Below are positions 27,408-64,000 of a DNA stretch of 64,000 bases, one piece after another (positions within the stretch are counted from its first letter, which is position 1; every line of letters begins with the position of its first letter). The notes under the pieces are model-generated. The model did not search any database. It saw only the letters and a list, made by a program, of their open reading frames with translations, and was not told the origin of the DNA. Both the position numbers and the translations under genes were made by a program. Source of the DNA: a virus. Location of the stretch: the IMG/VR virus record IMGVR_UViG_3300046453_000081, positions 45,236-109,235 of that record; one strand, given 5' to 3'.

Positions 27408-27470
27408 AGTTTTAAGGCAACAACAGGAAGTCTATTGTTGCCCAACAATCATTTGAAAGGGTTGATTGAA
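27408..27470 (-). ncRNA. Candidate small regulatory RNA antisense to the shared early-gene RBS
   Basis: Own promoter; hairpin CAAUCA-[ACCCUUUCAAA]-UGAUUG followed by GGCAACAAUAG/CUGUUGUUGCC hairpin; no ORF. Confidence 0.6.
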
Positions 27471-44459: not shown

Positions 44460-45395
44460 CTATATTTTATGAACCAATGTTCTATAATGGAACACCTGTA
44501 TGTTGAAGCCCCCTGCACCAATTGTCTCTATCTTTGCCTTGCCTTTCTCTCCCTCAATGATACCATCTAAATTTCCTTTTTCACTAATTCTCAATCGACT
44601 TGCATCTGTAATTGTTCCTACAACTTCATTGATTCTGAATATCAAGTCTAACATTTTCGCTTTTTTATCTTTTTCTAGTGTTTTTTCTAAAAAGGCAAGT
44701 CTTTCTGTTTCATCATAGTATCGACACATTTCAACTACTACCCATCCTGCCATTGCTAAGAATCCTTTTTTTCTCTTCTCTATGTCTGTCCAATGAAGTT
44801 CACATTCTTTTAAGTGAAGTTGTAATTCTTTACTGTGATAACTGTCTTGCAATCTAAAATCATAATCAATGTTACCATTTTCATCTACATGCTCTGCATA
44901 TTCAGGGGCAGTCTTTATATATTCGAGAATGGTTTTTTCCTTATCGTCTTTTAATTCTTTTGACAATTTACGATAAGCATCATATTTATCAACATACCAA
45001 TAAAAACATTTCTCTTTCCACTCTTCTAAAAAATCCTTTATTACTTGAGGTATATTGTTTTGGATATAGTTTTCTTTCTCTAATTCAGCATGTAATTTTT
45101 CTCTCCAATTTTCCAATACTATCTCTGCATCCTTTAATTTTCTTGTTGCCCCTTTAATATCGTCTAGTTTGCCTATTACTTCATATATAGTCCACGAATG
45201 TTCTGTGTTTCTATAAGGTTCACGTAATTCATCAATTTCATTTTTATTTTTTCCTGTTAAGTCTAAATCAACTGCCTTAATTACTGCCTGTATCTTTTTC
45301 TCTAATTGTTTCTCATGTCTTTCAATTGTTTTTTGGCATTTCTCAACTTTTTCCTTTGCCTTAGAGACTCTTACTTCTAAATCCTTTACGTCCAC
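44460..45395 (-). CDS. Possible Gad1-like (anti-Gabija) protein
   Basis: N-terminal coiled coil, about 310 aa, C-terminal GAGGFNIQVFHYR resembling my recollection of the Gad1 C-terminus. Confidence 0.45.
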   Translation of the reverse strand: MDVKDLEVRVSKAKEKVEKCQKTIERHEKQLEKKIQAVIKAVDLDLTGKNKNEIDELREPYRNTEHSWTIYEVIGKLDDIKGATRKLKDAEIVLENWREKLHAELEKENYIQNNIPQVIKDFLEEWKEKCFYWYVDKYDAYRKLSKELKDDKEKTILEYIKTAPEYAEHVDENGNIDYDFRLQDSYHSKELQLHLKECELHWTDIEKRKKGFLAMAGWVVVEMCRYYDETERLAFLEKTLEKDKKAKMLDLIFRINEVVGTITDASRLRISEKGNLDGIIEGEKGKAKIETIGAGGFNIQVFHYRTLVHKI

Positions 45396-50829: not shown

Positions 50830-50929
50830 TGTACAATCAAACCCTTTCTTTTTTTATTTGTCTTTGTTATATCGTACCTATATGTAGTTTATGACTTGAT
50901 GATTATATTTATTACTTGCAACTAAAATA

Positions 50930-50958
50930 AGTATAACAAAGACAAAAACAGAAAACAA
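50930..50958 (-). promoter_or_regulatory. sigmaA-like promoter of the helicase gene
   Basis: TTGTTT-17-TATACT with extended TG. Confidence 0.55.
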
Positions 50959-51060
50959 GATTAAGCTGTTATTTTCTGTTATTTCATTACCCATTTTTAC
51001 AGTCTTGTCCCGTCTAGGACAAACAGGTAATCAAATAACAGAAACAGGGGGCTAACCCTG

Positions 51061-51273
51061 TTAATTGTTATCAGCTTTTATCAATCTTGAAAATGGACTA
51101 GATAAAGCCCTGTTAATCATCCATTCATTAACTACAATATCTTTCATAAACTTAGAGTCTTCACTTGCCATTAAACATATGCTTTCATTGATATGTCTTG
51201 TCTTGCCTTTACCATCCTTTTCATCCATTGCTCTAACAAACATTTCAAAGCCTTTTTCAAAATTTGATAACAT
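51061..51273 (-). CDS. Array gene, hypothetical
   Basis: Start corrected to ATG after shared RBS. Confidence 0.6.
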   Translation of the reverse strand: MLSNFEKGFEMFVRAMDEKDGKGKTRHINESICLMASEDSKFMKDIVVNEWMINRALSSPFSRLIKADNN

Positions 51274-51381
51274 GTCAATCAACCCTCTCATTTTTTTAAT
51301 TTAAAACAAAGTAATAGGAAACAATTGTTATATTGTTTCCCTTGTCTTTGTAGTAAATTTAATTGTTTTGATACATACTCT

Positions 51382-51579
51382 CTAACAATCTTTTCCTGAC
51401 AATTCTAATGTGTCATCAGTAAAGAAATAATATTTCCCATCATTTTCATTGGACAATAAGCACGAATAACCATATTTAAAAATAACTACAATAGTAAATT
51501 CTTTACCTCTGTTTGAACCCAATGTACAAATCACCTTTTGACCAATTTTAAATTTTGTATTCAATTCTATCTTATTCAA
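51382..51579 (-). CDS. Array gene, small SH3/KOW-like protein
   Basis: KFKIGQKV...GKEFTIV pattern. Confidence 0.55.
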   Translation of the reverse strand: MNKIELNTKFKIGQKVICTLGSNRGKEFTIVVIFKYGYSCLLSNENDGKYYFFTDDTLELSGKDC

Positions 51580-51668
51580 ACAAATCAACCCTTTCATTTT
51601 TTTAAAACAAAGTAATGGGAATAGATTGTTATAGAGAATCTATTCCCCCTGTCTTTATTTTAAATCTG

Positions 51669-51923
51669 TTAAGGCAACAAGGCTACACTTTCACCTGTTT
51701 GAATAAAATAGGCACGTTGTAAGAATGCTAAAACATGGTCATGTTTTCCTTCCATGTATTCTTTTGCGCTTTTTTCTTCCCATTTGGTATAATCTTCAAG
51801 ATTATTCACATAAAACTTACCGTTTTTCGCTTCTTCAATACATGCCATTGCATTATCAGAAAACCATTTTCTAGTTTTTTGAATTGATTCTTCTGTTAAT
51901 TCGACTCCATTAAATTTTAGCAT
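51669..51923 (-). CDS. Array gene, hypothetical
   Basis: ORF with RBS. Confidence 0.6.
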   Translation of the reverse strand: MLKFNGVELTEESIQKTRKWFSDNAMACIEEAKNGKFYVNNLEDYTKWEEKSAKEYMEGKHDHVLAFLQRAYFIQTGESVALLP

Positions 51924-51986
51924 ATTTATCAACATTCCTTTCTTAACAAAATGCATTTTAACGTTTTGACAATTAATGTGTTATCT

Positions 51987-52142
51987 TCAATGATTTTGCA
52001 AATAAATATTGTATTCATGTTGTTTAGATTCAATGTAATCTTTTGCGTCTTCTCCATATTCTAAGCTAACAACTCTTAATTGTTCTTCAGTTAAAGAGCA
52101 TTCTTGAGATAACCATTGGCTAAAAGTTAAAACTTTAATCAT
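51987..52142 (-). CDS. Array gene, 51 aa (below ORF-track cutoff)
   Basis: ATG after shared RBS; MIKVLTFSQW... Confidence 0.55.
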   Translation of the reverse strand: MIKVLTFSQWLSQECSLTEEQLRVVSLEYGEDAKDYIESKQHEYNIYLQNH

Positions 52143-52233
52143 TTATAAATCAACCCTCTCAATTTTTATTTAAAACAAAGTAAGGGGAATAGGATTCTGT
52201 TATTGACTATTCCCCATGTCTTCATTTTAAAAA

Positions 52234-52485
52234 CTAATTTCTTTGTTCTATAGTAGAAACATGTTGTAAAACATATTCAGCGCAAATGTCTTCACCTCTT
52301 TGATAATCATAACTATTGTTATGACTTCCTACACAGATACAATCATTTCCATTATCAAAAATTTCAATCTTGTAATTATTGGGAAGGATTATCCAAAACG
52401 TATCCTCTCTACATTTTTGTAAAGGATATCCATGATTAAAAAGAGTATTGAAAACTGTTTGCATTACAGGACTATAATTTTTCAT
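52234..52485 (-). CDS. Array gene, hypothetical
   Basis: ATG after shared RBS. Confidence 0.6.
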   Translation of the reverse strand: MKNYSPVMQTVFNTLFNHGYPLQKCREDTFWIILPNNYKIEIFDNGNDCICVGSHNNSYDYQRGEDICAEYVLQHVSTIEQRN

Positions 52486-52614
52486 ATTAAAATCAACCCT
52501 TTCAAATTTAATTGGTACAATCTAATATTTTAGATTGTCCTTTCAATATTCTCTATTCAATTCTAATACAGAGAATACTCAAAGGACAGCTAAAAGCCTG
52601 TCCTATCTGTTATA

Positions 52615-52740
52615 TTAAATGAAGAATGGAACGAAAAATAATGATAAAAATATTAATGCTCCAATAATTACAAATCCATAAAATTCATCTTTATCCTTGT
52701 TATAGAAATTAGATAATACTTGATAGACATCTTGCAACAT
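52615..52740 (-). CDS. Array gene, 41-aa membrane peptide
   Basis: GGGGGA RBS; hydrophobic C-terminus. Confidence 0.45.
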   Translation of the reverse strand: MLQDVYQVLSNFYNKDKDEFYGFVIIGALIFLSLFFVPFFI

Positions 52741-52769
52741 GATTATTTCCCCCTGATTATATTTATTAT

Positions 52770-53186
52770 TTAAGCGTATTGTAAACTTTTCTTATAACCT
52801 TTAAATGAGTTAATTTCAAGATTGTTAATTTCACTAATTGTTTTTGTTAGATTCTTGAACAGACTGTCAACTCTATAATGTTTTTTGTACGATTTAAAAA
52901 AATCACCTTGTTTAGTTCTTAACCAAACAATTACTCTTAATGCATCTGCCCCTATATCCCTTGTTCTATCTGTCCTAATGTCCAATGATGAATAGATGAC
53001 AATACACTTGTTCGATTGATTGGTCTTTATCTTGTAAATTCTTTCCTTGGTGTTAAAACCTTTGTTAATCAGGGGCTTTGTTATGTCCTGAATACTGTTA
53101 ATAGACAGCCCTAAACCTGTTACAATAGCCTGTAATTCTGTTTCAAATTCCTGTTTGGTGAAAACACAAAAATTTTGCTTTGCCAT
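52770..53186 (-). CDS. Array gene, basic hypothetical protein
   Basis: YSSLD....RDIGADALRV motif. Confidence 0.65.
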   Translation of the reverse strand: MAKQNFCVFTKQEFETELQAIVTGLGLSINSIQDITKPLINKGFNTKERIYKIKTNQSNKCIVIYSSLDIRTDRTRDIGADALRVIVWLRTKQGDFFKSYKKHYRVDSLFKNLTKTISEINNLEINSFKGYKKSLQYA

Positions 53187-53271
53187 GTTAATCAACCCTT
53201 TCAAATTTGTTTATTTTAAAACCAATAAAAGAGACAACATTTTTCTGTTATCTCTTTTTTTGTTTTAAAAA

Positions 53272-53631
53272 TTATCGAATAATTCCACAATCGGTAACAT
53301 ATCCTTTAAAATTTTGTCCAAGGGCAATAAAGGATATTTCATGTACTCTTTTATATTCTGCCTTTCTTGTTTTCCCTTTTCCTATCCTTTCATTAGTTTC
53401 AGTTAATGACAGATTTTCAACCATATGAGAATCAATTTCTAATAGTCTTGTAATGGAAAAATGTATCTTTGTTTCAAGCGTTTTCCATTTACCTGTTTCG
53501 TCAATACAGTTATCATATGATGACTTACTCATTGCACGATATTCTGAATCAATATCAAAATGGAAAACATTTACACCATCTTTAAAGCCTGTTATATTGT
53601 CCTCTCTTAATTCAACTTGAAACATATTCAT
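53272..53631 (-). CDS. Array gene, hypothetical
   Basis: ATG after shared RBS. Confidence 0.6.
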   Translation of the reverse strand: MNMFQVELREDNITGFKDGVNVFHFDIDSEYRAMSKSSYDNCIDETGKWKTLETKIHFSITRLLEIDSHMVENLSLTETNERIGKGKTRKAEYKRVHEISFIALGQNFKGYVTDCGIIR

Positions 53632-53754
53632 TTCAATCAACCCTTTCAATTTTGGTACAAATCTAAAAAATATTTATTTCAGATTGTCCAATCAATTAAC
53701 AAGTCTGTTATATTGTTAACTGATTGGACAGCCTAAAAAATGGCTGTCATACTT

Positions 53755-54000
53755 TTATCTTTCAATGACAAATAATAACCCTTCATAATTGTCTTTTTCA
53801 AAATAGGCAGATATTTTGTCACCTGTCTCCAAATCTTGAATACTGTTTTCATCTGTAAAAAAGACACCTTCACCATTAACACTATTCACTGCATAATATT
53901 CTTGGTGATTTTCTACTACTTGAACATTGGTAACAGTGTAATCAAATTTTTCTGACTGAATACCTAATAAAAATAAAAACAACATCACAACATCAAACAT
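53755..54000 (-). CDS. Array gene, small exported or membrane protein
   Basis: Hydrophobic N-terminus. Confidence 0.55.
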   Translation of the reverse strand: MFDVVMLFLFLLGIQSEKFDYTVTNVQVVENHQEYYAVNSVNGEGVFFTDENSIQDLETGDKISAYFEKDNYEGLLFVIER

Positions 54001-54106
54001 CTAAAATCAACCCTCTCAAATTTGGTACGTTTTGAACGTCCTTTACATTTACACTGTTATAGCCCTTGTAAACATAAAGGACAGCCAAAAATCAGGCTGT
54101 CTGTTA

Positions 54107-54430
54107 TTAGAAACAATGTTTAATAATTAAGTCTTTAATCGTTCTCATTTCGCTTGTATAGTCCTGTCCTGCAATATAGCTTGCATTCCCTTTATGATTG
54201 ATAATCAATCTACTAAAAATACCATAACTTTTTGGTAAATTATCAATCTGTATATTGCATATTGCAATATACGGTTTACAACCTTTTCTAGATTCTGACA
54301 ATAAAAATTGTTTGAATTTCCATAGCATTTCCTGTCTTTCTTCGATAGGAGTATCAATCCATTCAAATTTGACATCATCATAATGTTTTCCACTGATTAA
54401 ATTTTCAAAGTTATACTGTTTGCAATTCAC
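54107..54430 (-). CDS. Array gene, hypothetical
   Basis: YIAGQDY motif; GTG after shared RBS. Confidence 0.6.
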   Translation of the reverse strand: MNCKQYNFENLISGKHYDDVKFEWIDTPIEERQEMLWKFKQFLLSESRKGCKPYIAICNIQIDNLPKSYGIFSRLIINHKGNASYIAGQDYTSEMRTIKDLIIKHCF

Positions 54431-54554
54431 ATAAATCAACCCTCTCAAATTTTTAGAACAATTTAAACTAGTGTTTAGATTGTCTTTTCAATTACTATTA
54501 TTGTTATGTTAGTAATTGAAAAGACAGCCTAAAATCTGACTGCCTTTGAAAAAA

Positions 54555-54869
54555 TTATAGACCCCAAATATAGATATATTCATTATCTGTTACATTTTTA
54601 AAACCTTGTTTTTCCCAAAATTCAATGGCTTCAAATAACGAATAAATAATAATTGGTCTGTTATCTTGTTTTAAATTATTAATGAATTCCGTACCATGTC
54701 CTTTCCCTCTATGATTTTCTTTGACAAATAAGTCTTCTAGCAATATAGCATCATGAACATTGTTTAAGTCTGTTAAGTCATATTCATCAAGTTTATACTT
54801 TGTTGTAAATTGTTTTAACTTGAATGGCTTAATAGATACCTTAGAAAAGATATGATTAAAATTTGTCAT
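54555..54869 (-). CDS. Array gene, GNAT acetyltransferase
   Basis: LFVKENHRGKGHGT; AIEFWEKQGF. Confidence 0.8.
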   Translation of the reverse strand: MTNFNHIFSKVSIKPFKLKQFTTKYKLDEYDLTDLNNVHDAILLEDLFVKENHRGKGHGTEFINNLKQDNRPIIIYSLFEAIEFWEKQGFKNVTDNEYIYIWGL

Positions 54870-54916
54870 AATTCACCTCTCTACACTGATTCAATAAAAA
54901 TCAGGCTGTCTGTTAT

Positions 54917-55243
54917 TTACCATTCTCTGCCCTGTATTAACATTTTTCGTTCCCATGCTATTAAATCATAATATTCACGTCTATCTTGATTGTCATTTTC
55001 AGGATAGATTTGTAATGCAATACTTGTAACCATGCTTTCATCTACATGTTTGGGCAAAGTCATTACTGTTTTGTTATTTTCCTCTATTCGGAAATAACAA
55101 TAGTAATCTGATTCACCATGTTCATTGCATTGATACCATTGCCTGTTAATCACTATTTTGATGTTGTTTTCGTTGATATCCTCATATTCATAGCGAATAT
55201 CAGGCATTTCAAATCCATAATCTTTCTGTTCATCTTGATACAT
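54917..55243 (-). CDS. Array gene, hypothetical
   Basis: ATG after shared RBS. Confidence 0.6.
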   Translation of the reverse strand: MYQDEQKDYGFEMPDIRYEYEDINENNIKIVINRQWYQCNEHGESDYYCYFRIEENNKTVMTLPKHVDESMVTSIALQIYPENDNQDRREYYDLIAWERKMLIQGREW

Positions 55244-55465
55244 ACTAAATCAACCCTTTCAAATTTGGTTTGGTACAATCTAGAATCAGATTGTCCTTTT
55301 TACTAATAACATGGTGCTAACTGTTATAATCGTTATTAGTAAAAAGGACAGTCCAAAAAATATGGGCTGTCTGTTATTGTTCATTCATTTTGTTTTCAAT
55401 CTTTTTATAGTACATAAGTAAATAATCAATTGCGGTTTGATTCTCTGCAATTATTTGTATGCTGT

Positions 55466-55663
55466 CTATAGGGGTTTTTTCAAATGCATACCATTGTAAT
55501 GGTTTTTTAAGGGTCTTAATTTTTCACATGATGTTATTTCCCCCGTCATTAGATTACAAACTGCAAATTTTTGTCCATCTCTTAACCAAGATGGAAGAAC
55601 AAATTTTCCTGTCTTTTCATTAAATTCAATTTCCATTCTTTGTGCAATGTTAACCTTTTCCAT
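55466..55663 (-). CDS. Array gene, hypothetical
   Basis: ATG after shared RBS. Confidence 0.55.
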   Translation of the reverse strand: MEKVNIAQRMEIEFNEKTGKFVLPSWLRDGQKFAVCNLMTGEITSCEKLRPLKNHYNGMHLKKPL

Positions 55664-55775
55664 ATCAATCAACCCTTTCAAATTCGATTTGGTACAATCA
55701 AATCATTTGGCTGTCCTTTCAATCAGTCATTAGTGACAGATTCAAAGGACAGCCAAAAAGAAGGCTGTCTGTCTG

Positions 55776-55949
55776 TTATTCAGAATAAACAAGTTCATTG
55801 TATTGTTTTTCCGCTGTCTGTCTGTCTGACCCAAAATGAAAATTCATATTCTTTCTTTCAAAGTAAATAGTATAGCCCTCACTGTCTTTAATCAGTCTGA
55901 CATCAAATCCAAATTCGTCCTGACCCTGTTTTAATACGACAAAATCCAT
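55776..55949 (-). CDS. Array gene, 57 aa, paralogue of the N-terminal part of 57633-58013
   Basis: MDFVVLKQGQDEFG..SDRQTAEKQYNELV vs LSILKEGQDNKG..SDSKKADSMYNSLV. Confidence 0.55.
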   Translation of the reverse strand: MDFVVLKQGQDEFGFDVRLIKDSEGYTIYFERKNMNFHFGSDRQTAEKQYNELVYSE

Positions 55950-56175
55950 CTTTTAACGTCCCCCTTTATATTCTTTAAAACATGCAAAACAGATTGATTT
56001 TAGACCCTGTTTTACTTTTAATTGCTTACAAGATGGACAGATGAAATATTTTTTAACCTTTTTCATTTAATCAACCCTTTCAATTTTGGTACATAGCTTT
56101 GTATGTCCTTTATGTTTATACTGTTATTCCGCTATAAACATAAAGGACAGCCAAATAAATAAGCTGTCAATAGTG

Positions 56176-56346
56176 TTAATCATAAAATTTTTCAAAGATG
56201 ATATATTTTTCAAAGTGGGCTACATTCCCTATGTCTGTTATGTCATAGCCCTTTTCTTTCATTCTGTTTACAGTATTAGCCCATTTTTCAGTGTTTTCTT
56301 CTTCCTTAAAATAGATATACTGAATTTTTTCATGAAATTTTTTCAT
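56176..56346 (-). CDS. Array gene, hypothetical
   Basis: ATG after shared RBS. Confidence 0.55.
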   Translation of the reverse strand: MKKFHEKIQYIYFKEEENTEKWANTVNRMKEKGYDITDIGNVAHFEKYIIFEKFYD

Positions 56347-56439
56347 TTCAATCAACCCTTTCAAATTTTTAAAATCAATAAAAGGAATAACATTATTGTC
56401 ATATTATTAATGACTGTTATTCCCTATCAGATATTAAAA

Positions 56440-56739
56440 TTATCTAGTCAGTGTTTTTAGCTGTCTATCCCATGTCTTTAATTTTCTTTCAAGTTTCTTG
56501 ATTATTTCAGGGTTTTCAGCCTTTTTTAATTCGTCTTGAATTTCTTCAATTGTTTGTTTGGTTACAATTATTTTCATATCTTTTTCAATTCTTAGCCTTT
56601 GTTCGACTATCAAATCAACTGTATGTCTAGTTTTGCCATATTCTAGATATGGTGTATTCATCATAATTTTGACTGCTTTTTGTAAGTCATCACAGGCTAT
56701 ACTCATTTTTTCTAACCGTTCTTTAACTGTTAATTCCAC
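56440..56739 (-). CDS. Array gene, coiled-coil protein
   Basis: GTG after shared RBS. Confidence 0.6.
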   Translation of the reverse strand: MELTVKERLEKMSIACDDLQKAVKIMMNTPYLEYGKTRHTVDLIVEQRLRIEKDMKIIVTKQTIEEIQDELKKAENPEIIKKLERKLKTWDRQLKTLTR

Positions 56740-56868
56740 TACAAATCAACCCTTTCAAATTTGGTGATACAATCAAGATTTTCAGTTTTGATTGTCCTTT
56801 TCACTAATACTGTAGTGTTATCTGTTATTAGCAAAAAGGACAGCCAAACAAAAATGGCTGTCTGTTAT

Positions 56869-57237
56869 CTATTCGATGACAATTTTAAAATAAGAATTAT
56901 CATTATAGACAACATAGTAATTATTTTTATTCACTGTTATTTTTTTGATACTATCCGCTGAAAATTGTTCAGATGGGTATTTTTCATCATTTAATACTAC
57001 ATAAATAGTATTATTTTCACAAAAAACCTCTGTTATTATTCCCCTTGCTATACATGTTTGTTTTCCTGATAATAATTCTTGAATATTTTCTACATTCCAC
57101 CCATTGTGAATCGAATACTTTTTACCTTTTCTTTCAATTAATTGGTGATAGAATTCACTTTTTGATAGCTCTTTTCCAATAATTTCATTGACCTTGTTAT
57201 CTCTGTCTTTGATAAATTTTTCAGTATACTTATTCAC
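56869..57237 (-). CDS. Array gene, hypothetical
   Basis: GTG after shared RBS. Confidence 0.6.
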   Translation of the reverse strand: MNKYTEKFIKDRDNKVNEIIGKELSKSEFYHQLIERKGKKYSIHNGWNVENIQELLSGKQTCIARGIITEVFCENNTIYVVLNDEKYPSEQFSADSIKKITVNKNNYYVVYNDNSYFKIVIE

Positions 57238-57364
57238 ACAAATCAACCCTTTCAATTTTTTTGTTTGGTACAATCTAGAATCAGATTGTCCATTCAATTA
57301 ACACTATTGTTATACTGTTATGTTGTTAATTGAATGGACAGCCTAATATCAGGCTGTCATACTG

Positions 57365-57517
57365 TTATTTTTTTGTTTTATTGACACCAAATAATCTAGT
57401 ACTGCCACAATCTTTGCATTGCCATTCTTCACATATTTCTGTTTTTATTACAATTTCATGCTTTTTTAAGTCATTACATTTTTTACAAAATACACTAACA
57501 TCATCATTTTTTAACAT
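57365..57517 (-). CDS. Array gene, 50-aa Zn ribbon
   Basis: FCKKC...WQCKDCG; ATG after shared RBS. Confidence 0.55.
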   Translation of the reverse strand: MLKNDDVSVFCKKCNDLKKHEIVIKTEICEEWQCKDCGSTRLFGVNKTKK

Positions 57518-57632
57518 TCCAAATCAACCCTTTCAAATTATTAGAACAATCGTTATTAGATTGTCTTTCAAGTATACACTTTTGTTATAGTATAAACTTG
57601 AAAGACAGCCTAAAATCAGGCTGTCAGGTTGT

Positions 57633-58013
57633 TTATTTTAATTCTACATTAAACAACGCTTCGATAGTGTTTAATATTGTATCACTATATCCAATGATAC
57701 CTTCATACCTAAGATACATGTCAAACAATTCTTTGTTGTCGTATTTTCTCATTATCTTTTCGTCTTGACTGTTGTCATTTTCGTCAATGTCTAACATCTC
57801 TCTGACCCTACTCATAATTGTGAAGGGGATAACCCTGTCAGATACTAGACTGTTATACATAGAATCTGCCTTTTTAGAGTCTGAATAATTATGATAACTA
57901 ATGCTAGTTTTACTTTCAATTTTTATGACATATTGCCCTATGTTGCCTTTTGCTAGTTGGACAATATTTCCTTTATTGTCCTGACCCTCTTTTAAAATAG
58001 ATAAGTTTTCCAT
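57633..58013 (-). CDS. Array gene, hypothetical
   Basis: YLRYEGIIGY motif. Confidence 0.6.
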   Translation of the reverse strand: MENLSILKEGQDNKGNIVQLAKGNIGQYVIKIESKTSISYHNYSDSKKADSMYNSLVSDRVIPFTIMSRVREMLDIDENDNSQDEKIMRKYDNKELFDMYLRYEGIIGYSDTILNTIEALFNVELK

Positions 58014-58120
58014 ATTACAAATCAACCCTTTCAAATTTGGTACGCTTTGAACGTCCTTTTTGTTTATAACTATCTAACTGTTATAAACAAAAAGGACAGC
58101 CAAATAATAAAGGCTGTCTG

Positions 58121-58381
58121 TTATAGGTATTTATTATCATACCAATGATTAAACAATTTTTTCATTGTATAAAATCTGTCTGATAGTTCTTTTAATTTTT
58201 CGTCCTTGAAATATAAAGACAAATCCCAAATTTCAATGTCTAGATTATCAATTGAAATTATTACATCTAATTGTAAATTTTCATCAAATGATAGAAATTC
58301 TTCCTTTGATATTTTTTCAATCAAAGAAAATTTTTTAATCAATTTTTCACTAGAAATTTGTACATAATTTTGCATATCCAT
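58121..58381 (-). CDS. Array gene, hypothetical
   Basis: ATG after shared RBS. Confidence 0.6.
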   Translation of the reverse strand: MDMQNYVQISSEKLIKKFSLIEKISKEEFLSFDENLQLDVIISIDNLDIEIWDLSLYFKDEKLKELSDRFYTMKKLFNHWYDNKYL

Positions 58382-58477
58382 TATAAATCAACCCTCTCAA
58401 ATTTGTTTTTAAAGCTAATGAAATGGATAACACTATTATCATACTGTTATAGTGTTATCCATTTTTTAGGCTTAAAA

Positions 58478-58813
58478 TTAAGCTGTCACTAGAATTATTT
58501 CACCCTGTGATAATTTAAAATATTGTTGGTTGTTATGTCCCAATAAATCTAACATGGTGTTAAGACTATCCCTATCACTGTTAGAATACCCATAATAATA
58601 GACAATCTCATTATCATTGTATTCAAGTGTTAACGTCCCATAATGAAACAATCTTGTTACAAGACATTTCGGGTCGGGGTATATTTCTTGCTCAATTCTA
58701 TATACTTCATTTCCCTGTCTTTTTAAGGACATACTAACAAAATCATCTGTTTTTTCAAATGCTTTGTTTAAAAGATTCTCGATAATTTTTACACTTTTTC
58801 CATATCTTGCCAT
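58478..58813 (-). CDS. Array gene, hypothetical
   Basis: LFHYGT..YGYSNSDRDSLN motif. Confidence 0.6.
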   Translation of the reverse strand: MARYGKSVKIIENLLNKAFEKTDDFVSMSLKRQGNEVYRIEQEIYPDPKCLVTRLFHYGTLTLEYNDNEIVYYYGYSNSDRDSLNTMLDLLGHNNQQYFKLSQGEIILVTA

Positions 58814-58938
58814 AACTAAAATCAACCCTTTCAAATTTGGTATAATCTAGGATAAAAATAATCTTTGATTGTCCTTTCATTTTCCACCATAGGCAGAAAA
58901 TCAAAGGACAGCCAAATAAATGGCTGTCTGTTATAGGG

Positions 58939-59130
58939 TTATTTCTCAATATATAATACCCTGTTAAATTTTTCTGACAAATGACACTTAATTCCCTTTT
59001 CAAGCAATACATCATATACTTTTTGTAATTCCTCTCTATTGCCTAAAATCTGATAATTTTTGGAAAATTCGTCAATAGATAACCATTTGCTTATAGTCTT
59101 AACTAGTTTTGATAAATCTTTCTTTGCCAT
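58939..59130 (-). CDS. Array gene, hypothetical
   Basis: ATG after shared RBS. Confidence 0.55.
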   Translation of the reverse strand: MAKKDLSKLVKTISKWLSIDEFSKNYQILGNREELQKVYDVLLEKGIKCHLSEKFNRVLYIEK

Positions 59131-59213
59131 AATAAAATCAACCCTCTCAAATTTGTTTTTAAAGCTAATGAAAAGGATAACAACCTTGTTATGTTGTTAT
59201 CCTCTTTTTAATT

Positions 59214-59390
59214 TTAAAATCCATCAAAATAGATAACCGCTATTATTTCCCTTGTAGCCTTTAATTCGATGCCTATTTTATTTCCATTGTTGTATAGGTT
59301 AACTTTATGGGCTGTCAATCCATTACCCCTCAAAATAGCCCTCAGTTCTTTTTGTTTTTTTATTGATAGTTCTTTCATTTTTATTAACAT
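59214..59390 (-). CDS. Array gene, 58 aa
   Basis: ATG after shared RBS. Confidence 0.5.
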   Translation of the reverse strand: MLIKMKELSIKKQKELRAILRGNGLTAHKVNLYNNGNKIGIELKATREIIAVIYFDGF

Positions 59391-59486
59391 CTAAAATCAA
59401 CCCTTTCAAATTTTTTTAAAGCCAATGAAGGAAATAACTCTATTTTCATAGTGTTAACTGTTATTTCCTTTTTTGCTTTAAAACTA

Positions 59487-59966
59487 TCAACCTGTTATTT
59501 TAACCTTTGATTTTTTGTTTGCTGTCTGTATTGTTTCTTTTCCGTATTTGTTAACCTTGTAATCGTAACTAGTAGCCTTTTTTCGTTTGGTTGTAAGATT
59601 TTCTGTCCAATACCATTTTTTATTTGACCCTGACCACTTAAAGCCAAGGCTTTTTAGAGTCTCTTTTATGGAATAAGTTTCACCATATACCCAAATCCAA
59701 GACCCTATAATGTCAATTGTTATAGCGTCAAATTTTACAATGTTATTAACAACGTCACGATAGTTAAAGCTGTCTGTATGTCCTTCTTTGTCTGTCTTAA
59801 CGTCTTTCAATTGTGCAAAAAGATTGTCATACTCATTATTGATATCTTGCATAATTTTGGTAGTATCTTTATCTCTGTTTAAATCAGGGTGAAATTGTTT
59901 TGCAAGCGTCTTGTATGCCTTTTTCAATTCTTCCATAGTGGTAACGTTTTTAAAGTATTTATACAT
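59487..59966 (-). CDS. Array gene, DnaJ J-domain protein
   Basis: ELKKAYKTLAKQFHPDLN...MQDINNEY (HPD motif). Confidence 0.8.
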   Translation of the reverse strand: MYKYFKNVTTMEELKKAYKTLAKQFHPDLNRDKDTTKIMQDINNEYDNLFAQLKDVKTDKEGHTDSFNYRDVVNNIVKFDAITIDIIGSWIWVYGETYSIKETLKSLGFKWSGSNKKWYWTENLTTKRKKATSYDYKVNKYGKETIQTANKKSKVKITG

Positions 59967-60045
59967 CTAAAATCAACCCTTTCAAATTTTTTAAAGCTAA
60001 TGAAAAGGTTAACACTGCTGTTATAGTGTTAACCCCTTTTTAGTC

Positions 60046-60438
60046 TTAAAATTGGTTTATGTTACGTCTAACTAGTGTTAATTGGTCAGGCTTGTTAAAG
60101 TGGTCTTTTCTGTCAAAAACTTTTTTGGCTTGTTTGTCTGAAAATCCTACCTTGGTTAAAATCTCGTATGACCCCCTAGAACCTTCACCATGATATCCAA
60201 ACGAACAACCATAAAAAATAACTGTCTGTCCTGTTATAGTGAATAGTTTCAAACGATACCAATTCTTTGAATCATATTGCAATATAGCCCTTTTTACAGG
60301 TGACATATATTTTTCAATATGCTTAAAAAATTCTAATGACTGTTTAGTAATGCCATTAGCATATAGATTATAATTTTTGTCTTTGATGTGTGTTACCCCT
60401 CTTTGAATATCTCTTTTTAAAATTGTTTGCCCCAACAT
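60046..60438 (-). CDS. Array gene, hypothetical
   Basis: GCSFGYHGEGSRG motif. Confidence 0.6.
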   Translation of the reverse strand: MLGQTILKRDIQRGVTHIKDKNYNLYANGITKQSLEFFKHIEKYMSPVKRAILQYDSKNWYRLKLFTITGQTVIFYGCSFGYHGEGSRGSYEILTKVGFSDKQAKKVFDRKDHFNKPDQLTLVRRNINQF

Positions 60439-60538
60439 AAAATCAACCCTTTCAAATTTGTTTTAAAGCTAATGAAGGAAATAACATTTTACCTATGTTG
60501 TTAAGGTTGTTATTTCCTTTTTTGCTTTAAACTGTCTG

Positions 60539-60811
60539 TTAGCTTTTTGTTTTAAATTTTAATTCAGCGTTTTCACTGTCAGATGAATAATAACCATTGG
60601 AAAAGCTATTGAATTCGCTGTTATATGTCCAAACTACATAGGGCTGATATGCTTCTTGTTTATAGCAAAGCGCTACAAATAAATATTCGTCTAATGGGTT
60701 ATTTGTCAAATATCTAAAATCTAACAATTCGAAGCCCATGTTTTTGGCTGTCATTGTAGCCTTTTCTTTCATTTCTAAACGGTTTTCCAATCTTGTATAA
60801 ATTTCTACCAT
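60539..60811 (-). CDS. Array gene, paralogue of 27509-27739
   Basis: YVVWTYNSEFNSFSNGYY. Confidence 0.6.
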   Translation of the reverse strand: MVEIYTRLENRLEMKEKATMTAKNMGFELLDFRYLTNNPLDEYLFVALCYKQEAYQPYVVWTYNSEFNSFSNGYYSSDSENAELKFKTKS

Positions 60812-60934
60812 GTTAAATCAACCCTTTCAATTTTGGTACGCTTTGAACGTCCTTTTCATCATTATCATAGTGATTATATTTATCACCTGTTAATAACAAA
60901 AAGGACAGCCAAATGATAAAGGCTGTCTGTTATC

Positions 60935-61222
60935 TTACTTTTCCTTTTTTTGGTGGATATCCACCATGTTTTCATATGTTGTTATAACCAAATTATTGAT
61001 ATCTCTTATAAATTGTCTTCTTTGTTGATACAAAGGTGAACGAATGTCATTAATCTGACTGACATGTTCAATTAATTCCTTTGACATCTTTTCCATTTTT
61101 TCATGTTGTTCAATAGCAGGCTTGTAACTTTTTTCCGTTTCCATTAATACTATTGCATCATTGGAAATTTCTGTTAATACCTCAATAATTTTTTCATCTG
61201 ATAAACCTGTAAACCATGCCAT
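60935..61222 (-). CDS. Array gene, hypothetical
   Basis: ATG after shared RBS. Confidence 0.6.
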   Translation of the reverse strand: MAWFTGLSDEKIIEVLTEISNDAIVLMETEKSYKPAIEQHEKMEKMSKELIEHVSQINDIRSPLYQQRRQFIRDINNLVITTYENMVDIHQKKEK

Positions 61223-61320
61223 TACAATCAACCCTTTCAAATTTGTTTTTAAAGCTAATGAAAAGGATAACAACCTTGTTGTTATCCACTTTTTAGTTTT
61301 AAAACTGTTTTTACTGTCTG

Positions 61321-61539
61321 TTATAGCCCCAATTCTTTTAAAGCCATTATTACCCTAACTTTGATTCCTACTGATAAGTATTCACTACGATAGAAGGATA
61401 AAAGATGTACATCTTGATAGACATCTTTTATTGCAAATGTCTGTCTTTTAATACCGCCTTCACGTCCGTAAAAGTCGATTTTTCCGTCTTCTTTAATAAT
61501 AGCCCATGCATTTTTTGTATAAGATACTTCTCTTAACAT
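61321..61539 (-). CDS. First gene of the array, hypothetical
   Basis: TTGAAAGGGTGTT RBS variant. Confidence 0.6.
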   Translation of the reverse strand: MLREVSYTKNAWAIIKEDGKIDFYGREGGIKRQTFAIKDVYQDVHLLSFYRSEYLSVGIKVRVIMALKELGL

Positions 61540-62278
61540 AGTGTTAACACCCTTTCAATTTTGTTTTTATTATACCTCAAAAACCCTGTTATCAAGGTTT
61601 TTGAGGTATCACAAAAAGGCTTGATATTGTTATTTCCTGTCCTTTGCATCATTGACCCTATAAGGGTTAACTAGTCGCTTAAAGCGTCACAATAGAGACA
61701 AGACAATATCAAGCCCCTTGCATCTAATAACACTATTTTCATAGTGTTAAAATAGATACCCTTTTTTGAAAGGGGTTGATAAGGTGGATATAGCATACGA
61801 CTGTTACCTGTCAGGTTATTCAGGGCTATATCAGACCCCCCAATTATTTTCACCCTGAAAATCAATTCAAGGTATTCGTCCGAGTCGGAAAATATTGGGT
61901 AATAAGCGATAACCCCCTTATAAGTAGGGTAATGACTTCTTTTTAGAATTCGTGTCGCTGTCATTATGTGCGACGCTCTTACATGATATCAGCCCTATCA
62001 AGTGGGCAACAACCTAGCACCCTGACCCCCTGAATTGATTGGGGGCAGTCCTAAGGGCAAAGCCCCTAAGGGGTAACGCTATTCGGTTTGGGTGGCTAGG
62101 GCTTTAGCGTAGGACATGGGGGGTATATTGTGTCAAACATACCAAAAAATGGATTTGTCGAATACCTCAAAAAAAGGCTTTAAATCAACTTTACACTATT
62201 TCCACAGTGTTTATGTTAGTTCCTTCCAATCCGACTCGTAACACTTTCAAAAATACACAAAAAGTGTAATTTTACACA

Positions 62279-63438
62279 TCGTTCGTGTTTTGCTTATTTT
62301 TTGCTCAATTTCAAAATAATCGTTCGTGTTTTGCTGTCGTTTTTTTGGAGGTTTTCACTATATGTGCATTGTAAACAGTCATTTTTGTTCACAAGTCTGT
62401 CACAATTAGATGTTTTGTCGAATTTTGCGAAATGAAAAATCAATGATACCAAGGGTTGAAAGGCTATAAAATTTATTTTAAGATGTTTTCGACAAAATTT
62501 GTCGAATGCCATAAAATATACCCTATACCCCTATGGGCAGTATGCTTATTAAACAATATGAACATAGTGAAAAGTTGATTTGTAGGGCTAAAATAGCTCT
62601 TTTTAATTGTTCGTGTTTTGCTAATATCCTAAAATATGGGAAAAGATTGTGAATTATTCGGTTTGGGTCAGGTCAATTTTCAAGGCATAAAAAGGGCTGT
62701 CAGGCTTGATGTATCAGGCTTTTCAAGGCTTTTCAGGGGGTCATATTAACCCTTTTATTTCTATAGGGTGTAAAAAAGGGTCAGGCTGTCCGATATGGGC
62801 TATAAAGGGCTGTCATGGGCTGTCTGTCCGTTTTGCCACTATCCATAGGCTGTCAGGCTGTCAGGGGGCTATAAGGGGCTATAAAGGGCTGTCTGTCTGT
62901 AAGGGGCTAATATAGGGGCTGTCTATAGGCTGTCTGTCTGTCAGGGGTCAGGCTGTCTTGCATGGGCTAATATAGGGGCTTTTCAGGGTCAGGGGGTCAG
63001 TCTGACCCTACCCCAAGTAAGTTTACACTATGTTGATAGTATTATATAGTAGTTTGTGAATTATTCACATAAAGCCCCACAATTGCCCTGTATTGGATTG
63101 ATATATAGGGGGGTCAGTTTACTATTCGGACGAAAATAACGCCTTATTGATACTAATTATTATTTCCCTAATATCTCCTAATAATTGGGAATAATTCAGG
63201 AAATAATGTATATCTATACAAGTCTATACAATCGGAGTTAACAACATGCATATAGTGAGAAGTTGATATATCAAGGTTAAATAGGGCTAATAGTAGGTTA
63301 CTGTATACGTTAGGGGGTATATGTAGATATGCATTGTATGATGTCTGACCCTTTATTCCCCTTGCAACGGTGCGGGGTGTATCGTTCGTGTTTAGGCTGA
63401 TATTGTATGTATATATATATTATTGTTCGTGTTTTGCT
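62279..63438 (+). repeat. Dispersed direct repeat GTTCGTGTTT(TGCT), 5 copies
   Basis: Near 62281, 62322, 62608, 63384, 63425. Confidence 0.7.
62690..63000 (+). repeat. Degenerate GGGCT/GGCTGTC tandem repeat tract
   Basis: Many GGCTGTC, GGGGCT and CAGG units. Confidence 0.75.
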
Positions 63439-63594
63439 TATCATGTTAGATATCATTATCAGTTAGATAGTTTTAAATGAGAATCATAGGGAAATACGGG
63501 TTAATACTATGGGTAATGAATGTATATAGGGTTAATACTATGTGTGTAGTAGTAATGATGTGAGATGATATAACATAGGTATGTAAGATACGCT

Positions 63595-63840
63595 AACATC
63601 ATAGAAAAGTATATAACATTATATGATGATATATAACTATGTATATATTAGTATAATGATATATGATGATATGATACTTTATATGATGTATGCAAGATGA
63701 TATATAATGTAGTATGATGATATATGATGTATTATAACTATGTATGATAACGTATAACAATATATGATAACGTATAATGATATATGATAATAGAGTACCA
63801 TATATAACCATGTATGATATATTATAATGACATATGATGA
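63595..63840 (+). repeat. Low-complexity (TATATGAT)-like repeat tract
   Basis: Repeated ATATGATGA/ATATAA units. Confidence 0.75.
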
Positions 63841-64000
63841 CAGGGTAACACTTCACTGTCAGACAGTATGTTATATAAACGACACGAATATAGTATTAAC
63901 TATCTGCCCTGTCTTGTATACCCTACCCCCTATTTATGGGATATTCTGCCATGCATACCCTGGGGGGTGGGGGCGTGGGGGGGGGGGGGGGGTGGGGTGG

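Follow-up and report, generated by a model that had tools for sequence, protein, structure and literature searches.

Triple-hairpin elements between the tiny genes of a distantly SPO1-like phage: a covarying RNA helix and possible RNase III-type processing sites

The stretch of DNA considered here (the window) comprises 64,000 nucleotides (nt) of the IMG/VR virus record IMGVR_UViG_3300046453_000081, positions 45,236 to 109,235, which is the right-hand 64 kb of a linear virus contig of 109,235 bases with a completeness of about 60% (CheckV). The contig comes from an uncultured phage in a rhizosphere metagenome; its large open reading frames (ORFs) all lie on the minus strand, its start falls within a gene and its end is a poly-G artefact, seen in the window as a poly-C/G run at 63962-64000 that resembles a sequencing artefact. 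Next to a non-coding terminal region of 2.3 kb, tiny genes form an array in which they are separated by two kinds of structured element, Type A and Type B, and the subject of this report is Type A, a series of three hairpins (H1, H2 and H3) that ends in a shared ribosome-binding site (RBS). As set out below, the central helix of Type A is under selection as RNA of the coding strand, and the elements are read, tentatively, as ribonuclease (RNase) III-type processing sites.

The helicase of this phage shares 48-50% identity with the helicases of Bacillus phages Shanette, CP-51 and SPO1, and further small proteins match Bacillus phages only, which together point to a distant SPO1-like (Herelleviridae-related) phage with a Bacillus-like host. 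One gene of the array (58478-58813) encodes a homologue of TreP, the terminal-repeat-encoded protein of Twort-like staphylococcal phages, and on the strength of this gene the array may be equated with the early 'host-takeover' or Tre (terminal-repeat-encoded) modules of the SPO1/Twort-like phage family, with its early timing presumed from the same likeness. TreP-like proteins at 50-54% identity occur on short Logan and JGI contigs, and searches for related loci with the helicase and with a TreP-like alignment found nothing. The phage sequence is present in two DNA runs, both of them rhizosphere metagenomes; one may be the source of the contig, and in the other the sequence is nearly identical, of low depth and free of informative variants.

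Thirteen copies of Type A, all on the minus strand, lie between the tiny genes at about 52.5-60.9 kb of the window, as had been proposed in an earlier note made from the letters of this DNA alone. The order given there (stop codon, H1 with the arms GACAGCC/GGCTGTC, a long variable H2, a short H3, ACC and an invariant RBS block) was found upstream of 13 RBS blocks, and a covariance model built from the copies gives exactly 13 hits on the contig at 88-107 bits, with the next best at 40 bits and nothing further of the kind besides one truncated copy. The exact form GACAGCC-N(8-10)-GGCTGTC occurs in nine copies against 0 expected, while H1 in the other four carries G.U-compatible changes or a bulge. 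The RBS block TTGA[AG]AGGGTTGATT occurs 27 times at no more than one mismatch (0.06 expected), 26 times on the minus strand and nearly always inside the array, and 13 of these occurrences are preceded by the Type A series. The gap between the stop codon and H1 measures 2-12 nt, and a single-stranded stretch of 7-14 nt joins H3 to the RBS block. At 27453-27467 on the opposite (plus) strand, 24 kb away, the RBS block also occurs in exact form, and another 50 nt on there is a GACAGCC (27516).

The 11 Type B elements of the array have this RBS block as well; each folds into a hairpin of two tiers, about 20-25 bp long and interrupted by an internal loop. The sequence TAACAGACAG directly after a stop codon also precedes two of them (61324 and 60540, minus strand) and is therefore a module common to Type A and Type B. 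Within one Type A element lies a gene for a GNAT acetyltransferase (Pfam PF13508, E = 3e-7; 54555-54917, minus strand) that has a different RBS of its own, GAGAGGTG; the 5' stump GACAGCCTGATTTTT and the odd H1 arm GGCAGTCAGATTTTA of the next copy resemble a partial duplication at this insertion.

When folded alone, 11 of the 13 copies take three abutting hairpins as their minimum-free-energy (MFE) structure, with folding z-scores of -4.7 to -9.9 across all 13, and none of 200 shuffles folds equally well. Compensatory changes had been claimed for all three stems, a claim that holds strongly for H2 and was overstated for the other two. In a MAFFT alignment, two-sided changes are present at 13 of 13 aligned pairs of H2 and 97% of its cells are paired; none of 500 shuffles reaches the observed values, and sliding the partner by 1-3 columns as a control lowers the pairing to 35-52%. 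H1 shows no covariation and is conserved in sequence, four of its pairs being invariant and three having one-sided changes only, to G.U. H3 is 92% paired with a single pair that changes on both sides (A-U to G-C, in three copies), and the H3 classes that can be read directly from the sequence (ACAATC/GATTGT, ACGTT/A[AG]CGT and ACATA/TATGT) reflect few independent events.

The type of mismatch tolerated in H2 shows on which molecule this selection acts. G.U accounts for 12 cells and A.C for none, and since a cruciform or an antisense RNA would give A.C equally often, the H2 fold is selected as RNA of the coding (sense) strand. Across all MFE stems of Type A there are 27 G.U pairs against two C.A mismatches, and the sense strand folds better than its complement in eight of the 13 copies, by up to 10.7 kcal/mol. 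Selection on structure, which the earlier note had deduced from the stems, is thus upheld at the level of RNA, and the structure in single-stranded DNA (ssDNA) that it had offered as an alternative is disfavoured.

The same asymmetry weighs on the wider proposal that the elements act as DNA, whether by forming cruciforms or ssDNA hairpins or by serving as recombination sites that delimit gene cassettes, in the manner of attC sites, PeSL (promoter early stem-loop) cassettes or MITEs (miniature inverted-repeat transposable elements). Such a role would suit the insertion of the GNAT gene with its own RBS and the partial duplication of H1, as well as the mosaic make-up of the modules, in which identical H3 arms accompany different H2 helices, and the breaking of Logan contigs at the repeats. 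It is nevertheless most improbable in our judgement, given a helix selected as RNA of one strand, no integron-type integrase (in a search that was not exhaustive), no attC R/L boxes, no target-site duplications and no relatives found that show exchange. The conserved helix base in these elements is GTCC/GGAC, not the attC core (RYYYAAC ... GTTRRRY), and an attC-like site was rejected; T-box-like, put-like, Chi-like and DnaA-box readings of the motifs likewise found no support. A likeness to PeSL cassettes, put forward before as a loose precedent, needs a promoter, which the elements lack, and the idea that the elements offer homology for shuffling rests on the single case of the GNAT gene, no relatives having been found for comparison. 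Self-cleavage, another activity previously suggested, gained no support, as neither a conserved unpaired core nor an Rfam ribozyme hit was found.

Adjacent stems had also been thought to allow alternative pairings, and a consistent second fold does exist in 13 of 13 copies (Table 1). RNAalifold favours an extended H2, in which the loop end and 3' arm of H1 (UUUGG-C-UGUC) pair with the 5' arm and loop start of H3 (GAC-R-WUCWAA), and this extended helix is 97% paired. If the 5' arm of H1 (7 nt) is blocked, every copy refolds to a single hairpin of 22-33 bp at a cost of 0 to 7.8 kcal/mol, and in two copies (7 and 8) this long hairpin is already the best fold. The flanks of each copy pair better with their own partner (75 of 78 cells) than with partners taken from the other copies (69.6 +/- 1.9; P = 0.005), and three of the second-fold pairs use complementary loop bases (UUU and AAA) that lie outside H1 and H3.

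All of these features would be accommodated by a two-state RNA switch. Its trigger would be either a GACAGCC-binding factor or a ribosome that terminates 2-12 nt before H1; once released, the H1 3' arm would enter the long hairpin, and whether the junction is cut or the next start becomes accessible would then depend on how much of the factor is present or on whether the upstream gene is being translated. The short gap between stop codon and H1 favours such a switch, and so do about ten co-oriented, unpaired copies of GACAGCC, the heptamer of the H1 5' arm, in the upstream non-coding region at 62.7-63.0 kb (62680-62960, minus strand). We hold it to be rather unlikely all the same. H3 resembles a decayed copy of H1 (GACAATC/GATTGTC against GACAGCC/GGCTGTC), so that the second fold may be an accident of duplication; with 13 related copies in two subfamilies, the statistics, including the P value, may arise without function. 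Predicted accessibility of the Shine-Dalgarno (SD) sequence, moreover, varies from 0.14 to 0.70 across the copies with no pattern and is tied to neither fold, and at gaps of 6-7 nt a terminating ribosome opens just 0-3 bp of H1. As for the GACAGCC copies at 62680-62960, they often take the form ACAGACAGCC or CTGACAGCC, in a G+C-richer stretch where they are mixed with TATAGCCCC and TGACCCC repeats.

Table 1. Location of the tiny-gene array and of the Type A elements in the window (long form, the single 22-33 bp hairpin).
Feature	Window coordinates	Strand	Folding z-score	Description
Array	50900..61700 (10.8 kb)	minus		~27 tiny genes; 13 Type A and 11 Type B elements; 36 sense ATAACAG; almost no sigma-A promoters
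Type A copy 1	60816..60935	minus	-5.9	H1, H2, H3, ACC, RBS block; 89.5 bits
Type A copy 2	58820..58936	minus	-4.7	Duplicated GATTAT arm in H3 region
Type A copy 3	58020..58126	minus	-8.0	Most canonical; 16-bp perfect H2
Type A copy 4	57522..57633	minus	-8.8	H2 GTCTTTC/GAAAGAC; TCT replaces ACC
Type A copy 5	57241..57366	minus	-8.4	H2 GTCCATTC/GAATGGAC
Type A copy 6	56744..56870	minus	-5.7	
Type A copy 7	56069..56176	minus		H1 arm GACAGCT, giving a G.U pair; H3 ACATA/TATGT; MFE fold is the long form
Type A copy 8	55667..55777	minus	-9.9	Full GACAGCC in H2 3' arm, so MFE fold is the long form
Type A copy 9	55248..55379	minus	-7.1	Bulged H1
Type A copy 10	54434..54552	minus	-7.3	H1 arm GGCAGTC, giving two G.U pairs; after inserted GNAT gene
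Type A copy 11	54005..54109	minus	-4.8	Tandem G.U pairs in H2
Type A copy 12	53635..53756	minus	-7.7	H2 GTCCAATCA/TGATTGGAC
Type A copy 13	52491..52610	minus	-6.3	Shortened H1
Truncated Type A 5' end	~54890..54917	minus		ATAACAGACAGCCTGATTTTT; broken off before GNAT gene

The array is set apart from the rest of the window by its lack of promoters. Each minus-strand intergenic segment was scored by its best match to TTGACA-(16-18)-TATAAT, out of 12, and a sigma-A match of at least 10/12 is found in one of 25 array segments against 22 of 61 elsewhere in the window, six of the 22 at 11/12. This confirms that sigma-A promoters are missing from the elements, as had been noticed before, and Type A shows no conserved -35 or -10 boxes. 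A search by eye for concealed promoters covered H2, L1, Type B and the loops on both strands, extended -10 boxes included; the candidates were rejected as inconsistent in spacing. Because the array is without the sigma-A promoters that are common elsewhere, it is probably polycistronic and most simply taken to be transcribed from upstream into one or a few long RNAs. The sole strong sigma-A-type promoter in the array (52785-52756, minus strand; TTTACA-18-TATAAT, 11/12) lies inside the end of the gene at 52770-53186 and precedes a gene for a hydrophobic peptide of 41 amino acids (aa) (52615-52740) that has a different RBS.

H1 could also be a leaky intrinsic terminator or attenuator after each gene, in which case H2 and H3 would form the leader of the following unit. 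The H1 hairpin is rich in G+C, CTTTTT or CTTTG comes after it in most copies, three H1 hairpins pass a terminator scan on the sense strand, and in SPO1 and Stab22 hairpins occupy the same place after the stop codon. The other ten of the 13, however, fail the scan, the loops measure 8-10 nt, two copies have CCATTC or CCAATC in place of a U run, and the tract after H1 is the covarying 5' arm of H2, which changes together with the A-rich arm downstream. On these grounds H1 is mostly no intrinsic terminator, and the simple-terminator alternative, which had been named beforehand as one to check, fares poorly; with no promoter after H1 from which transcription could restart, the leaky version is quite improbable as well.

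The earlier note had placed the stop codon often within TAACAG, and this is so in four copies; in the rest, the gene ends at a stop codon 2-12 nt before H1, and TAACAG occurs independently of it. What had looked like a stop-codon context is better described as a strand-specific word of the whole array. ATAACAG is the top array-enriched 7-mer, above the words of the RBS, with 36 sense copies and one antisense copy in the 10.8 kb of the array, as against 16 and 13 in the other 96 kb, so that outside the array the sense copies are not depleted. The shorter ATAACA occurs 60 times in sense in the array, 40 times in intergenic and 20 times in coding sequence; the coding copies are about fourfold enriched relative to coding sequence elsewhere in the genome and are confined to frames 0 and 1, which avoid a stop. 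Intergenic copies are found 5' of H1, in the apical regions of H2 and in the stems and loops of Type B, and specifically in the H2 apical region in ten of the 13 Type A copies and within 20 nt 5' of H1 in nine. ATAACAG is not enriched in the SPO1 module or in the long terminal repeat (LTR) of Stab22, a pattern scan of IMG/VR for three copies returned mainly protein-coding repeats (I-T-G/A), and a literature search for the word gave primers and other incidental matches only.

This distribution raises the possibility that the elements are display platforms for AUAACAG, where a sequence-specific reader, for instance a phage endoribonuclease or an RNA-binding protein made later, would bind the single-stranded word in loops and just after stops and would tag early messages for timed shut-off or protection, with the stems mattering mainly for how the word is presented. 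In phage T4, RegB and RegA act on early mRNAs. The strand bias, the enrichment and the stop-avoiding frames of the coding copies, together with the places that the word takes in H2, before H1 and in Type B, are in its favour. We nonetheless think it unlikely, in view of what it leaves aside: H1, H3 and the second fold go unexplained, the word is absent from H2 in three Type A copies and not enriched in the SPO1 module or the Stab22 LTR, and the IMG/VR scan returned mostly protein-coding repeats. The genes also lie on one strand, which makes an RNA signal and a DNA signal indistinguishable, and the reader is a purely postulated one. A combined form, in which Type A would be a trans-operated switch of an undescribed control of early messages, with a GACAGCC factor or the ribosome flipping the 13 junctions to the long hairpin, and so exposing or cutting them, while AUAACAG tags the transcript for its reader, is doubtful to much the same degree as the two-state switch.

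The reading that we favour, with due reserve, is that Type A elements are RNase III-type processing sites whose products are capped by H1 on one side and by H3 with a very strong RBS on the other, as in SP82 and T7. A long early transcript without internal promoters would carry them as intercistronic signals. Their central helix, either H2 itself (13-22 bp) or the long hairpin of 22-33 bp that arises by pairing between the H1 3' arm and the H3 5' arm, would be the substrate of a double-strand-specific endonuclease, most likely host RNase III, and cutting would part the neighbouring cistrons. The upstream piece would then end in H1, a G+C-rich hairpin that would stop 3' exonucleases, and H3 would form the start of the downstream piece, with ACCAAAT and then the RBS block GAAAGGGTTGATT behind it. 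This block could pair, as GAAAGG(G) + UGAUU, with most of the 3' tail of 16S rRNA, taking that tail to carry the textbook Bacillus anti-SD sequence, and it would promote translation and at the same time protect the 5' end against RNase J1, like the polypurine 5' stabiliser of SP82. A promoter-free long message would need stability and a start for each gene, and the series of H1, helix, and H3 with RBS would supply 3' cap, cut site, and 5' cap with start. We infer the early polycistron, the cutting, the identity of the enzyme and the capping roles of H1 and H3.

Several findings fit this proposal. RNase III sites of B. subtilis lie in duplexes of 10-36 bp (PMC11780869), and both forms of the Type A helix fall within that range. 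Early mRNA of SP82 is cut by Bs-RNase III (PMC4838370), and RBS mutations in SP82 mRNA shorten its half-life (PMC7509114). The two-tier geometry of Type B, about 20-25 bp as in the T7 sites, also counts for an RNase III reading, and the SPO1-like helicase and the TreP-like gene place lineage and module close to the SP82/SPO1 precedent. Among the loose precedents proposed in the earlier note, the RNase III sites of SPO1/SP82 and T7 were judged the best.

A number of points weigh against RNase III-type processing. It does not account for the conservation of GACAGCC as a sequence, for the unpaired copies of this heptamer at 62.7-63.0 kb, or for ATAACA in ten of 13 H2 loops. H2 often falls short of two helical turns when the element adopts its default three-hairpin fold, and Type A has no sequence in common with the processing regions of SPO1. 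The presumed Bacillus-like host is suggested by protein matches, and no phage RNase III (PF14622, PF00636) is found in the roughly 60% complete contig. Transcription from upstream would depend on the sole clear -10 box there, TTGATA-15-TATAAT at about 61600, which is weak by consensus, and it assumes read-through of 10 kb past Type B hairpins that resemble intrinsic terminators. No RNA run, finally, is among the sequencing runs listed as holding the phage sequence.

The closest parallel is provided by SP82 and SPO1, which combine Bs-RNase III sites with a polypurine 5' stabiliser (Panganiban and Whiteley, 1983; Mitra and Bechhofer, 1994; Hue et al., 1995; all as cited in PMC4838370 and PMC7509114). 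They belong to the same lineage as this phage and have the same kind of module, with small early genes close to a genome end. As in the present array, folded RNA, in a leader or between cistrons, lies immediately before an RBS of exceptional strength: the early leaders of SPO1 have a hairpin and GTACCAAGATTGTAAAAGGAG, and Type A has H3 and GTACCAAATTTGAAAGGG. The differences are nevertheless considerable. Each gene of SPO1 has its own sigma-A promoter and terminator, whereas here the promoters are absent and H2 stands in the promoter's place. About three sites have been mapped in SPO1/SP82, as opposed to the 13 + 11 copies of the present array, the triple-hairpin design with two folds is unlike anything in SPO1, and cleavage is known for SP82 and only predicted here.

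Another parallel to the array is found in the Tre arrays of Twort-like Staphylococcus phages such as Stab22 (LR215721.1), which likewise have a TreP homologue, a series of tiny genes and a hairpin after the stop codon, and in which the RBS block of the Tre genes, GAAAAGGAATTGATT, is nearly the same as the one described here. In Stab22, however, the hairpin after the stop holds a -35 box (GGGCTTGAC...) and is followed by a -10 box, so that each gene has its own promoter; there is no triple hairpin and no ATAACAG enrichment. In both SPO1 and Stab22, a promoter lies in nearly every gap of the equivalent module, between the post-stop hairpin and the leader with the strong RBS.

The early RNase III sites of T7 (R0.3, R0.5, R1, R1.1 and R1.3) are likewise hairpins of about two helical turns between the genes of an early polycistron, and once they are cut, the message upstream is stabilised by the hairpin left at its 3' end. 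They are single hairpins with an internal loop, nearer to Type B than to Type A and unrelated in sequence, without flanking H1 and H3, a shared RBS block or the ATAACAG word, and their host is Gram-negative. A looser comparison can be made with bacterial repeats of the Correia/CREE (Correia repeat enclosed element), ERIC and BOX type, which are multi-copy, intergenic and co-transcribed, and whose long, RNase III-sensitive hairpins affect the processing and stability of messages. Such repeats are chromosomal, derive from mobile elements and are bounded by terminal inverted repeats and duplicated targets; Type A shows no ends of this kind, and every copy of it is tied to an RBS. Hairpins that punctuate an early phage polycistron are of a kind already known from T7 and SP82. 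What is new in this phage is the triple-hairpin cassette with its built-in second fold, the loss of per-gene promoters to it and the ATAACAG word embedded in it.

Searches of databases, among them the search of Rfam and phage genomes with a covariance model that had been proposed as a check, gave no Rfam match and no further copy in the collections searched. Rfam 15 returned no hits at the gathering threshold and, below it, only generic microRNA-precursor models of long hairpins; no copy of Type A was found in 50,697 phage records (megablast and blastn), in IMG/VR or in the JGI metagenomes. In SPO1, CP-51, S4-1 and Shanette the covariance model reached best E-values of 0.3-0.9 and blastn found nothing. 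Pattern scans of IMG/VR with the RBS block and H1 gave single chance hits or generic terminators only, and the leader pattern ACCAAAWTTGARAGGGTTGATT had five unrelated hits in IMG/VR and the JGI metagenomes.

Other features of the array and of the terminal region may be recorded here. Two mini-proteins of 50 and 37 aa (57365-57517 and 55953-56066, minus strand) have paired CxxC motifs of the zinc-ribbon type, and a 159-aa protein (59487-59966, minus strand) has a J domain (Pfam DnaJ, E = 7e-8). A slippery heptamer, A AAA AAC, lies at 55508-55502 on the minus strand, where the ORF at 55466-55663 overlaps a start-less frame that ends with TAA at 55380; this overlap may mark a fusion by -1 frameshift or a real frameshift in the sequence. 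The sequence AGCAAAACACGAAC[AG]AT occurs five times in the non-coding terminal region (62300-63450, minus strand), and a low-complexity field of ATCATAT-type repeats lies at 63580-63860.

If the favoured reading of Type A as processing sites is true, this phage has swapped the per-gene promoter-terminator units of its SPO1/Twort-like relatives for one long punctuated transcript, in which a standard RNA cassette brings together a cut site, caps for the 3' and 5' ends and a very strong RBS, and this cassette could be reused to insulate genes in Bacillus operons. The second fold provides a concrete hypothesis for how translation or a factor might time the processing, and for ATAACAG the phage offers 13 near-identical contexts in which the reader of the word may be sought.

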